64,000 nucleotides of DNA. Origin: an uncultured Candidatus Saccharibacteria bacterium. Lineage in GTDB: Bacteria > Patescibacteriota > UBA1384 > DTJR01. Both the position numbers and the translations under genes were made by a program. The stretch's first letter is position 1. Every line of letters starts with the position of its first letter. The notes beneath the pieces are model-generated. The model worked only from the letters and a program-made list of their open reading frames with translations. It was not told the DNA's origin and searched no databases. This document shows positions 5,027 through 47,633 of this stretch, one piece after another. The DNA lies in contig CAZAOT010000001.1 in NCBI GenBank assembly GCA_964487045.1, positions 151,863-215,862 of the forward strand, read 5' to 3'.

Positions 5027-6103
5027 CTAGTCGGGGTGCTTGGCGAGCCACTGGTTCAGGGCTTCGAACACCTGAATCCAGGGCGAGCCTGCGAGGATAT
5101 AGACCTCGCCGGGCGTGTCGTGGTACCAGATCTTCATGCTGCCGTCAGCTTGAAGATCGCACTTCACGACAGAAGGAGCGATTTCCTCCATGATCTGGAG
5201 GGTATTCAGCACAACCGTCTTGTCGTTCAGCTGGGCCTCGACGTGATCAGACAGACCAGCTATGCGAGCTAGACTACGGATCTCGTAGTAGTCCGGATCC
5301 TCCTGGTCCGGCACCTCATTGAGGTAGTCGAGAAGCGTCTGCATCGTAGGCGCTACCGGCAAGTCGCCTGGTGCGTGCTTAATCGCCCAAAGACGGGCGA
5401 CGAGCAGAACGATGTAGTAGCGCGCCATACTGAGATTGTCCTCACGGATCTCCCAGTGCCCGAGTGGCGTCTCCAGGGAAATGTGCCCTGTCGAGATCTC
5501 GCAAGGGAAAGCGAAGCCGAGGACAAGCTCGATGGCCTTCTCGGCGCTGATGGTCGTATAGCCTTGGCAGTCGCCGTGCACGAAGTGCAGCTTGAAGGTC
5601 CCGCTCTCACAGAGGCGCAGTGCCTCGTTGATGGGGAAATTCTGTAGATCTGCCCACTTCTTGATCTCATCTAGATCGCAGGTGCGGCCAGCTAACTCGA
5701 GCATGCGCTCGAGTTCGTCACGTGATTGCGGAGGTATTTCAGTACCTTTCTGCCCTGTAGGGGCGGGGAAGATTTCGGTCGGGACTGAAATGCCCCGCCT
5801 GATGCAGATGGCGACAAGTGCGTCGCGCCATCGTCCAACCTCGAGCAATGTGCTTTCAAGCAAAATCGCACTAGGCTCCGTTGCCGGAAAACCCATGCGG
5901 TTATTGTAGAGAGCGTCGGCAAAAAGCGTTCGAATCGACCAAGCCTTCTGTTTGGAATTGGGCAGTTTGATCTCCGGGGGAAAGCCAGCCGCGATGCCTA
6001 CTTCGATGATGCGCTCCAGTTGGAACGCTCCACTTTCGCAGGCCTCGCGGCAAAGCTCAGAATACTCCTGCTCGGCTCGCGATTGTTGTTCTCTAGCATC
6101 CAT
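5027..6103 (-). CDS. hypothetical protein in a GC-rich island
   Basis: 358-aa ORF in ~57% GC DNA. The start ATG is preceded by GGAGAAAGTTGACAT, the same RBS context as the neighbouring gene. No recognisable domain. Confidence 0.55.
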   Translation of the reverse strand: MDAREQQSRAEQEYSELCREACESGAFQLERIIEVGIAAGFPPEIKLPNSKQKAWSIRTLFADALYNNRMGFPATEPSAILLESTLLEVGRWRDALVAICIRRGISVPTEIFPAPTGQKGTEIPPQSRDELERMLELAGRTCDLDEIKKWADLQNFPINEALRLCESGTFKLHFVHGDCQGYTTISAEKAIELVLGFAFPCEISTGHISLETPLGHWEIREDNLSMARYYIVLLVARLWAIKHAPGDLPVAPTMQTLLDYLNEVPDQEDPDYYEIRSLARIAGLSDHVEAQLNDKTVVLNTLQIMEEIAPSVVKCDLQADGSMKIWYHDTPGEVYILAGSPWIQVFEALNQWLAKHPD

Positions 6104-44896: not shown

Positions 44897-44925
44897 TTGA
44901 CAACTTGTAAAGTCTACTTTACAAT
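44897..44925 (+). promoter_or_regulatory. consensus sigma70 promoter TTGACA-17-TACAAT with an embedded perfect palindrome TTGTAAAG-TCTA-CTTTACAA (44905-44924)
   Basis: -35 at 44897-902, -10 at 44920-925, ATG at 44932. The inverted repeat spans the spacer and the -10. Confidence 0.55.
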
Positions 44926-44931
44926 TAGGGC

Positions 44932-45639
44932 ATGAGTAGACGAGAAATTGCAAGTTATCTAAGAAAGTTCAGAGAGAGGTCAGAAATCACACAAGGTGAT
45001 CTGGCTGATATGCTTGGTATTTCACGCCAATCAGTTATCTCTCTTGAGAGTGGGCGTTGTGTGCCCTCAGTTGCCTTAGCTATTAAGGTATCAAGACTAT
45101 TTGAAATGCCTGTTGAGTTTATCTTTAGAGAATCAAGCGAGATTGAAGAAAATGAAAATAAAGAAACTAAAACGCCGGAAGGCAACGGAGGTATTATGAA
45201 TAGAGATTTAATGCCTTGGTCTCCTCTTCGAGAGATTATGTCGATGAGAGAGACAATGGACAGGTTCTTTGACGAACCAAGCAGTAGATCGACAGCTTTG
45301 TTTCATCCTGCGGTGGGTATCAGAGAATCAGAAAAAGAGTTGGTAATTGAAGCAGATATTCCTGGAGTTAAGGAAGATGATCTCGATGTAGAAATTGAAA
45401 ACGATAAAGTTGTTATCAAGGGTGAGAGAAGGCACCGTGAAGAAACTAAGAAGGAAGATTATTATCATCTAGAGAGTTCATATGGATCATTCTCAAGAAT
45501 GGTATCGCTTCCAAGCTATGTTGACTCTTCCAAGGCTGAAGCAGAATTCAAGGATGGTGTCTTAGAGATCAAAATTCCTAAGGTTACTGAGAAGCAGTCC
45601 AAGAAACTAACAATTAAGAAAAAGGCAGAAGCAAAGTAA
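44932..45639 (+). CDS. fusion protein: N-terminal XRE-family HTH DNA-binding domain + C-terminal Hsp20/alpha-crystallin small heat-shock domain
   Basis: N: ITQGDLADMLGISRQSVISLESGRCVPSVALAIKVSRLF. C: DIPGVKEDDLDVEIENDKVVIKGERRH...FSRMVSLPSYVDSSKAEAEFKDGVLEIKIPK. Confidence 0.75.
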   Translation: MSRREIASYLRKFRERSEITQGDLADMLGISRQSVISLESGRCVPSVALAIKVSRLFEMPVEFIFRESSEIEENENKETKTPEGNGGIMNRDLMPWSPLREIMSMRETMDRFFDEPSSRSTALFHPAVGIRESEKELVIEADIPGVKEDDLDVEIENDKVVIKGERRHREETKKEDYYHLESSYGSFSRMVSLPSYVDSSKAEAEFKDGVLEIKIPKVTEKQSKKLTIKKKAEAK

Positions 45640-45660
45640 TTTTTGCGAAAGTACTGAATG

Positions 45661-45686
45661 AAAAAGCTCCATTACTGGAGCTTTTT
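45661..45686. terminator. bidirectional terminator
   Basis: AAAAAGCTCCA-ttact-GGAGCTTTTT. Confidence 0.6.
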
Positions 45687-45707
45687 CTATATAACTTGTT
45701 ATATATA

Positions 45708-47177: not shown

Positions 47178-47206
47178 TTGAAAAACAAGCCTTATCGGGT
47201 TATAAT
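47178..47206 (+). promoter_or_regulatory. sigma70 promoter TTGAAA-17-TATAAT for the tRNA
   Basis: -10 ends 11 nt before the tRNA 5' end. Confidence 0.5.
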
Positions 47207-47217
47207 CATTTTGTTTT

Positions 47218-47292
47218 CGGCCTGTAGCTCATTGGTAGAGCGACGCTCTTATAAGGCGTATGTAGATGGTTCGATCCCATCCAGGCCGACCA
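47218..47292 (+). tRNA. tRNA-Ile (anticodon UAU as encoded), CCA encoded
   Basis: CGGCCTG / CAGGCCG acceptor, anticodon stem ACGCT/GGCGT (one G.U), loop CTTATAA, T-arm GATGG-TTCGATC-CCATC. Confidence 0.75.
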
Positions 47293-47508: not shown

Positions 47509-47633
47509 ATCTTGTCCAATATCTACATTTAGGATTAATGGTTCATTTAGTAGATATACGCTCGTGACTTGACAAATGGAAAATAATGTTATATAATAGT
47601 TATAGTAACATTACGAACGTGAGGGAGGGGAAA

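Follow-up and report, generated by a model that had tools for sequence, protein, structure and literature searches.

What would a small heat-shock protein (sHSP) do with a DNA-binding domain of its own, and what is the role of a perfect palindrome laid across its promoter? Both questions are raised by a gene at 44932..45639 on the forward strand of a 64-kb stretch of DNA from an uncultured Candidatus Saccharibacteria bacterium (contig CAZAOT010000001.1; "the window" hereafter denotes this whole stretch of 64,000 nucleotides). The gene encodes a 235-residue protein in which an XRE-type helix-turn-helix (HTH) domain is fused to an sHSP, and we refer to the palindrome as its operator. The same operator lies in front of nearly all orthologous fusion genes and, in related genomes, in front of the classical heat-shock genes. 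We consider it moderately probable that the fusion represses both its own gene and a heat-shock regulon, vacating its operators when its sHSP part is recruited to unfolded proteins.

A palindromic operator within the promoter of the fusion gene

A promoter scan places a −35 hexamer, TTGACA, at 44897..44902 and a −10 hexamer, TACAAT, at 44920..44925, both on the forward strand and separated by 17 nt. This promoter matches the consensus at 11 of 12 positions, in agreement with a preliminary description of the locus in which it was called near-perfect; it is the sole promoter-like site between 44000 and 46500, and one of six sites in the window with at least 11/12 matches. An inverted-repeat search recovers the perfect palindrome TTGTAAAGT-CT-ACTTTACAA at 44905..44924 (no strand assigned), the arms of which are 9 nt long, flank a 2-nt centre (9+2+9) and are 100% complementary. 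It covers the promoter spacer and the −10 element, the right arm overlapping the latter and supplying its TACA; the preliminary description was correct as to its presence and this cover, and gave the arms as slightly shorter than they are. Within the palindrome, the operator core TGTAAAG-N4-CTTTACA spans 44906-44923 with half-site centres 11 bp apart, and it is the only site in the window when up to two mismatches are permitted. Palindromes with 9-bp arms are more numerous in the window than expected (approximately 10 distinct ones against 1.7), most being GC-rich terminators. The significance of this one therefore derives from its placement inside a promoter and its retention in 66/67 orthologous promoters, and not from arm length alone.

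The ATG lies only 6 nt past the −10 element and no Shine-Dalgarno sequence is present in 44926-44934, so the fusion mRNA is probably leaderless. An imperfect repeat (44899-44922 / 44936-44959) might have been a further site or a fold in the mRNA; both ideas were set aside, as it is weak (71% complementary) and no similar repeat stood out in the orthologous upstream regions.

The operator is conserved in orthologous promoters

Aligning the 70 nt 5′ of each fusion orthologue reveals TTGACA-N4-TGTAAAG-N4-CTTTACA-(A/T)T to be nearly invariant, within flanking DNA that is unconserved. The 14 specified bases of the operator core are exact in 61 of the 67 fusion-gene promoters and recognisable with at most two mismatches in 66, and their spacing to the −35 and −10 elements is constant. 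TTGAC is found 4 nt 5′ of the operator in approximately 57/66 orthologous promoters, and the −10 element of the orthologues, either TACAAT or TACATT, occupies the same position. Each fusion locus has a single operator, invariably 5′ of the fusion gene; within loci L001-L066, which account for approximately 480 of the 569 kb scanned, no further site with one mismatch or fewer was found. The distance from the end of the operator to the start codon has a mode of 8 nt (21/66 orthologues) and is 12 nt or less in 36/66, which suggests that leaderless expression is a frequent trait of the family. This conservation constitutes strong comparative evidence that the fusion autoregulates through its own HTH.

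In one orthologous promoter (L058, 3926-3943) both arms have changed symmetrically, to TGGAAAG-N4-CTTTCCA, and the change fits an operator read by a symmetric dimer, for which such a change would be predicted. This promoter and that of L054, which is discussed below, are candidates for co-variation between the recognition helix and its site.

The same operator precedes heat-shock genes in related genomes

Because the window contains no homologues of groES, dnaK, grpE or clpP and only a single operator, a regulon was looked for in relatives. A scan of metagenome contigs with the combined promoter-operator pattern TTGACA-N4-TGTAAAG-N4-CTTTACA (28 nt, 20 specified bases) returned at least 120 loci. 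Downstream of the pattern we find groES (at least nine loci), clpP (at least three), grpE (at least two) and dnaK (at least one), as well as the HTH-sHSP fusion (at least 10) and operons of a stand-alone HTH (at least 15); in at least 14 loci the downstream gene is cut off or unresolved. The ClpP proteins encoded behind the operator carry the NCBI name Candidatus Berkelbacteria. The other class, of at least 66 loci, is a parB-type gene present as near-identical copies from one abundant organism; we counted these copies as a single instance, which is possibly due to chance or unrelated.

In the parB-type loci (at least 66, within L082-L200; e.g. L084, 2617-2645) the 28-nt pattern lies 29 nt upstream of a gene for a 252-residue ParB/Spo0J-like protein (MEKFEMISITDIQKNPYQPRKEF...). 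The contigs are near-identical, come from many metagenomes, some of them human-gut, and carry no HTH gene nearby except in L099, where one lies 4 kb downstream. The match may be fortuitous, its count inflated by the abundance of the organism, or the site may be the target of a stand-alone member of the HTH family.

To avoid the selection bias of a pattern search, we also picked GroES proteins by protein similarity alone. In this set the operator is present in the groES-groEL promoter in 4/4 cases (three exact, one with a single mismatch), as the only operator in each of these loci of 8-20 kb. An operator-bearing heat-shock gene and an operator-bearing fusion gene occur together in five assemblies: groES with the fusion in PEZW01 (L208 and L045), CAYOQP01 (L217 and L041) and CAZVMH01 (L218 and L023), clpP with the fusion in CAZEVI01 (L221 and L020), and dnaK with the fusion in the complete genome CP011213.1 (L230 and L009). 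A further pair, dnaK L232 and fusion L026, may lie on one contig, as both contigs measure 39,277 bp; the stretches compared are non-overlapping, and it was left out of the same-genome pairs.

The operators of classical heat-shock repressors were sought in 713 kb of loci, a scan that took in 13 groES, three dnaK and several clpP and grpE promoters. No promoter-located match with four or fewer mismatches to the controlling inverted repeat of chaperone expression (CIRCE, TTAGCACTC-N9-GAGTGCTAA) was found in these 713 kb. The HspR-associated inverted repeat (HAIR, CTTGAGT-N7-ACTCAAG) gave only scattered two-mismatch chance matches there, none at heat-shock promoters, and the CtsR heptad repeat GGTCAAA-NAN-GGTCAAA was not found at the clp and chaperone promoters of the same loci. 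What the three scans did return were weak matches outside promoters.

Since groESL, dnaK, grpE and clpP of the clade, and of genomes that also encode the fusion, have this operator in front of them, the fusion is more likely to be the regulator of a heat-shock regulon. The preliminary description had read the protein as an sHSP that is its own repressor; the autoregulation it proposed is supported by the orthologous promoters, while a purely private loop is an incomplete account, as heat-shock genes share the operator.

An older pairing of HTH domain and operator

A search of GTDB, in which each species was represented by one genome, found stand-alone homologues of the HTH domain, of approximately 70 residues, in Hyphomonadaceae, Caulobacterales and Flavobacteriia; such homologues also occur on GC-rich metagenome contigs. 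They are 43-51% identical to residues 1-87 of the fusion and share the motif VSRQS[VI]. The operator lies upstream of these genes too, exact in three Hyphomonadaceae loci and with one mismatch in three Flavobacteriia loci, where it heads a two-gene operon encoding a small membrane protein followed by the stand-alone HTH. The metagenomes supply at least 15 more such operons, usually with two tandem operators approximately 26 nt apart (range approximately 22-39 nt); examples of this tandem arrangement are L073 (3521-3577), L078, L085, L117, L177, L181, L187 and L194. The membrane partner is a small multi-pass protein with a sub-threshold DUF2178-like match, and a search for a specific family name for either protein returned only the generic HTH_3 and this sub-threshold DUF2178 match.

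These homologues are the best available evidence that the HTH of the fusion binds TGTAAAG-N4-CTTTACA, which we strongly infer from them. Because they sit behind the same operator in other phyla, the pair of HTH and operator is older than the fusion, and the lineage of the candidate phyla radiation (CPR) joined an existing autorepressor module to an sHSP. The operator also ties a widespread and uncharacterised XRE family of approximately 70 residues to a defined DNA site.

The fusion joins a repressor-type HTH to a complete sHSP

The open reading frame 44932..45639 comprises 235 codons with no internal stops and no frameshifts, so that the division into two genes that had been thought possible does not apply. 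Pfam searches place both domains in this one protein, as the preliminary description had proposed, and both exceed their cut-offs. The XRE/Cro-CI-type HTH domain (HTH_3) occupies residues 10-62 (44959..45117; E = 1.4e-9, 38.3 bits against a cut-off of 23) and the alpha-crystallin domain (HSP20) residues 130-225 (45319..45606; E = 6.6e-24, 84.4 bits against a cut-off of 20.8). All features of the protein are given for the forward strand. The putative recognition helix, SRQSVISLE, corresponds to residues 31-39 (45022-45048). Between the domains lie an acidic, Lys-rich linker (ESSEIEENENKETKTPEGNGG, residues ~66-88, 45127..45195), the Glu/Lys-rich character of which had been recognised earlier and which is predicted to be disordered and flexible, and a conserved sHSP N-terminal region (MNRDLMPWSPLREIMSMRETMDRFFDEP, residues ~89-125, 45196..45306). 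The family alignment identifies a C-terminal I/L-x-I/V anchoring motif, L226-T227-I228 (45607..45615), through which the oligomers of canonical sHSPs are assembled. NCBIfam models show sub-threshold likeness only, to Hsp18/Hsp14/Hsp20 and to phage/antitoxin XRE repressors, and no second HTH or alpha-crystallin domain was found in the 64-kb window.

An AlphaFold2 monomer model, built from 39 family members, contains two confident and independent domains, the HTH at residues 2-65 and a beta-sandwich at residues 127-217, each with a predicted local distance difference test (pLDDT) score of approximately 90. The modelled HTH has five helices (residues 2-17, 21-28, 32-40, 47-57 and 62-65), the linker is disordered at residues 70-87 (pLDDT below 50), a further helix lies at residues 98-113 inside the sHSP N-terminal region, and the alpha-crystallin domain forms a sandwich of seven strands. 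The last of these matches the bacterial and plant sHSPs 3gla, 5j7n and 1gme, both in a sequence search of the PDB and by Foldseek (probability 1.00). The solved structures nearest to the HTH are the PbsX-family regulator 9k3w (65 aa; E = 4e-10) and CylR2 (1utx; E = 2.5e-7), both stand-alone proteins of 65-66 residues. When the fusion model was searched against the PDB with Foldseek, only alpha-crystallin domains were matched, and no solved chain with both domains was found. With N-terminal region, alpha-crystallin domain and I-x-I tail all recognisable, the fusion carries a complete sHSP and no remnant of one.

A large protein database holds approximately 80 clusters (at 90% identity) that combine HTH_3 and HSP20, with identities of 41-84%; the source names of their members are only "Hsp20 family protein" or "Spore protein SP21", from Berkelbacteria, WS2 or unnamed bacteria. 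In the GTDB scan the fusion is present in 66 species representatives, from Berkelbacteria and other Patescibacteria, and metagenome contigs add at least 10 further fusion genes. The architecture is thus not restricted to one assembly, which had been a concern, and a protein identical to that of the window is encoded on an independent Logan assembly contig.

Across 39 aligned members, 29 columns spread over both domains are invariant. They include S31, R32 and Q33 of the putative recognition helix, and P95, S97, P98 and D110 of the sHSP N-terminal region (consensus MPWSPxREMMSMRExxDRFFDEP), where W96, R100 and E115 are nearly invariant; the alpha-crystallin motifs P-G, G-E and A-x4-G-x-L-x4-P-K are invariant as well. 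The C-terminal [IL]-x-[IV] motif, LTI in the window protein, is conserved across the family and not invariant (KKLTIK, KKISVK, KKIQIK and similar), and the linker is the only variable part, in both length and sequence. We propose to define the family by an HTH_3 domain, linker, sHSP N-terminal region, alpha-crystallin domain and I-x-I tail, together with an operator between the −35 and −10 elements of the gene's own promoter, all of which are recognisable at the window locus. A third proposed trait, presence of this operator at chaperone and protease genes of the genome concerned, is seen in five related assemblies. One Berkelbacteria locus (L067, 3939-4405) encodes a 142-residue variant that keeps the HTH and the operator and only the last alpha-crystallin strands; this natural truncation is a possible comparison for the role of the sHSP part.

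A proposed mechanism and its alternatives

In the mechanism that we propose, a dimer of the HTH would bind TGTAAAG-N4-CTTTACA, the half-sites of which are one helical turn apart. Because the bound repeat would cover the spacer and the −10 element of a near-consensus sigma-70 promoter, RNA polymerase would be excluded, and the fusion would repress its own, probably leaderless, gene and, in Berkelbacteria-like Patescibacteria, also groES-groEL, dnaK and clpP, with grpE added in some lineages. Under proteotoxic stress the sHSP part would be drawn into sHSP-substrate assemblies; its client-binding N-terminal region directly adjoins the flexible HTH linker. This recruitment would either deplete the free repressor or disable it sterically, inducing the regulon with the fusion gene among its members. 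Since the repressor gene belongs to its own regulon, induction would raise holdase capacity and at the same time build in a shut-off: as DnaK and GroEL cleared the substrates, free fusion would return to the operators and the response would cease. We infer repression as the direction of control from the position of the operator, and release from DNA under stress by analogy with other chaperone-coupled repressors. The more far-reaching proposal, that Berkelbacteria-like CPR bacteria run their whole heat-shock response through one protein that is chaperone, unfolded-protein sensor and repressor, with capture by misfolded clients freeing the operators, is one that we advance tentatively and believe slightly less than we doubt. 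If true, it would describe a new heat-shock regulon and the first chaperone-titration model hard-wired in one polypeptide.

Several points weigh against these proposals. Their support is the comparison of sequences from uncultured organisms, from which binding, repression and heat induction are predicted. The AlphaFold2 monomer has a predicted template modelling score (pTM) of 0.43 and is uninformative on communication between the HTH and sHSP domains. One fusion locus, L054, is without a recognisable operator. Neither groES, dnaK, grpE nor clpP was found in the 64-kb window, where the operator occurs just once, and the regulon is accordingly seen in relatives and not in the window's own genome. 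A good operator site was not found at grpE of CP011213.1 or of L232, so membership of the regulon varies between lineages. At least 66 of the at least 120 matches to the 28-nt pattern lie at the parB-type gene, which has no heat-shock link, and the pattern is therefore not exclusive to the fusion system. Finally, the scans covered loci and not whole genomes, and fusion genomes could contain a second, stand-alone HTH paralogue.

The alternative that survives best, although we judge it unlikely, retains the same targets and the same repression and makes the fusion an intrinsic protein thermometer, in which heat alters the sHSP oligomers or destabilises the HTH dimer with no need of clients. Intrinsic thermosensing repressors are an established class that includes RheA and CtsR, and sHSP oligomers dissociate with temperature; the canonical elements of oligomerisation (N-terminal region, alpha-crystallin domain and I-x-I tail) are all kept in the fusion. 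HrcA of Campylobacter is reported to be an intrinsic thermosensing repressor too (PMC8533110). The operator and regulon evidence fits such a thermometer as well as it fits client titration, and present data separate neither from the other, both of which may act together. What speaks against the thermometer is that the client-binding N-terminal region, needless for a mere thermometer, is conserved as strongly as the HTH.

It is more doubtful still that the sHSP part serves as a dimerisation or oligomerisation scaffold for homeostatic autoregulation, or that the fusion autoregulates only and another factor acts at the groES, dnaK and clpP sites. Short XRE domains often require an added dimerisation module, the window shows an autoregulatory site alone, and the 142-residue protein of L067, with its degenerate alpha-crystallin remnant, is still encoded behind the operator. 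However, the stand-alone homologues of 65-75 residues work with no added domain, and 9k3w and CylR2 are stand-alone proteins too. The same 14 bases recur, with unchanged spacing to the −35 and −10 elements, at four classes of heat-shock genes in the same genomes, and a regulon of chaperones and protease only would be hard to explain without a stress input.

We regard as very improbable two further readings, in which the HTH tethers the chaperone to DNA for protection of the nucleoid or of DNA-bound proteins, or in which the fusion is a spacer-binding activator of MerR type. The site does lie between the −35 and −10 elements, where MerR-type activators bind too, but the HTH is XRE-type and not MerR-type. 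MerR-like activation was moreover ruled out because a spacer of optimal length (17 bp) between near-consensus hexamers leaves no activator-driven realignment to be performed. Proteins that combine DNA-binding and alpha-crystallin domains are known from plant chromatin complexes (ARID proteins, PMC12071340), which would be in keeping with a tether; against this, there is one highly specific site per promoter and no dispersed distribution. That an error of sequencing or assembly turned two genes into one, or that the palindrome is a chance one, has a negligible likelihood and was rejected, no supporting point having been found, given a family of approximately 80 clusters from independent assemblies and sources and 66 species-level genomes, the identical protein on an independent contig, and an operator that is kept while the surrounding DNA is not.

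Comparison with known systems

The proposed logic has well-known precedents. HrcA on CIRCE and HspR on HAIR are repressors that bind an inverted repeat overlapping groESL- or dnaK-type promoters and that of their own operon. In the HrcA-GroEL and HspR-DnaK systems, unfolded proteins titrate the chaperone and the regulon is induced, DnaK acting as the co-repressor of HspR. The target set observed here (groESL, dnaK, grpE, clpP) is the same classical heat-shock set as theirs. In contrast to both systems, chaperone and repressor are one polypeptide in the fusion, and the chaperone belongs, by its domain content, to the ATP-independent sHSP class rather than being GroEL or DnaK. The DNA-binding domains also differ, being XRE-type in the fusion, winged helix in HrcA and MerR-type in HspR, and TGTAAAG-N4-CTTTACA is unrelated to CIRCE or HAIR.

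RheA of Streptomyces albus is a dedicated thermosensing repressor of the sHSP gene hsp18 that is autoregulated and has its operator in the promoter region. Dedication to an sHSP gene, autoregulation and a promoter operator are thus common to both systems, whereas RheA and Hsp18 are encoded by separate, divergent genes, and RheA is no chaperone, its control being limited to hsp18 and the gene for RheA itself. The HTH of the fusion is homologous to CylR2 (1utx) and to the PbsX-family protein 9k3w, and it shares its operator with the uncharacterised HTH proteins of approximately 70 residues, which, unlike the fusion, have no sensor domain and belong to small membrane-protein operons that usually carry two tandem operators.

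The closest likeness is to IbpA of Escherichia coli, an sHSP that senses aggregation, represses translation of ibpA, ibpB and rpoH and aids shut-off of the heat-shock response (Miwa and Taguchi; PMC10410725, PMC10474464, bioRxiv 10.1101/2020.04.20.050740). In both cases the sHSP itself would be a titratable negative regulator, acting on its own production and on the heat-shock response at large. IbpA, however, acts post-transcriptionally, binding 5′ untranslated regions (UTRs) through sHSP regions and having no dedicated nucleic-acid-binding domain, whereas the fusion has a separate HTH and DNA operators. With its ATG 6 nt past the −10 element the fusion mRNA would have essentially no 5′ UTR through which IbpA-type control could be exerted, and the likeness is functional only. 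The only other architecture that combines a DNA-binding domain with an alpha-crystallin domain met in our literature search is that of plant ARID proteins, which are components of PEAT chromatin complexes involved in chromatin remodelling (PMC12071340). Those proteins differ in being eukaryotic, in carrying ARID and not HTH_3, and in having no link to a heat-shock operator, and they are not homologous to the fusion as a fusion.

A full-text literature search returned no description of an HTH-Hsp20 fusion, a CPR heat-shock regulator or a TGTAAAG/CTTTACA operator; the one paper that contains both half-sites has them in primers only. The suggestion made at the outset that the architecture is undescribed accords with this search. 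The logic of a chaperone-coupled repressor is known, and what is new is the regulator family, its operator and the fused architecture. CPR bacteria make up a large share of bacterial diversity in which heat-shock regulation is essentially uncharted, and for these there is now a candidate regulator, an operator and a first regulon. Titration control, as in the sigma-32, HrcA and HspR systems, normally involves two proteins and is hard to dissect, whereas here sensor and effector are covalently linked, and a single protein with a single 18-bp site makes up a minimal system that is testable in vitro. The fusion would also extend the role of an sHSP as aggregation sensor and regulator, as in IbpA, from translation to transcription, and could offer synthetic biology a compact and portable switch responsive to proteotoxic stress.

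Further features of the heat-shock loci and of the window

The leaders of groES, dnaK and clpP behind the operator are 40-155 nt long and contain GGAG, unlike the probably leaderless fusion gene. In Berkelbacteria both dnaK and dnaJ have a conserved and strongly structured 5′ leader hairpin, CCGCC-N-CGCTCAATCTCTT...AGATTTCGCT...GGCGG (L232, 5872-5946 and 8880-8960; L230, ~5880-5960; fold z-score −4.5). No match to this hairpin was found in Rfam (the best hit, on the wrong strand, scored 25 bits where 42 are required), and it may add a second layer, at the level of RNA, to the control of the heat-shock response. A conserved mini-unit is found approximately 150-250 nt 5′ of groES, at ~3750-3830 in L208, ~9760-9830 in L217, ~9800-9870 in L218 and ~9720-9790 in L215. 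It comprises the promoter-like sequence TTGACTT...TATATTG, the hairpin gcggYaRcgatctttcccccttggattgttgccgc and a T-run, and may represent a terminator or the gene for a very small RNA.

In the window, the fusion gene is flanked upstream by a gene for a CarboxypepD_reg-domain protein and downstream by a convergent gene for a YkuD L,D-transpeptidase, neither of them stress-related. Between the fusion gene and the latter is a terminator hairpin at 45660..45687 (no strand assigned) with perfect 12-bp arms and a 4-nt loop, preceded by an A-run and followed by a T-run, so that termination is possible in both directions. Further downstream, at 47218-47292 on the forward strand, is a tRNA-Ile gene for which ARAGORN gives the anticodon UAU and which scores 67 bits with the Rfam tRNA model; a promoter, TTGAAA-17-TATAAT, lies in front of it at 47178. 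Such a tRNA is uncommon because in most bacteria AUA is decoded by a CAU tRNA that carries lysidine. A 12/12 sigma-70 promoter, TTGACA-17-TATAAT, lies at 47569-47597 before the 47586/47634 open reading frame, and since the listed ATG at 47586 sits within this promoter, the true start is probably the second Met (MNDKTKI...).

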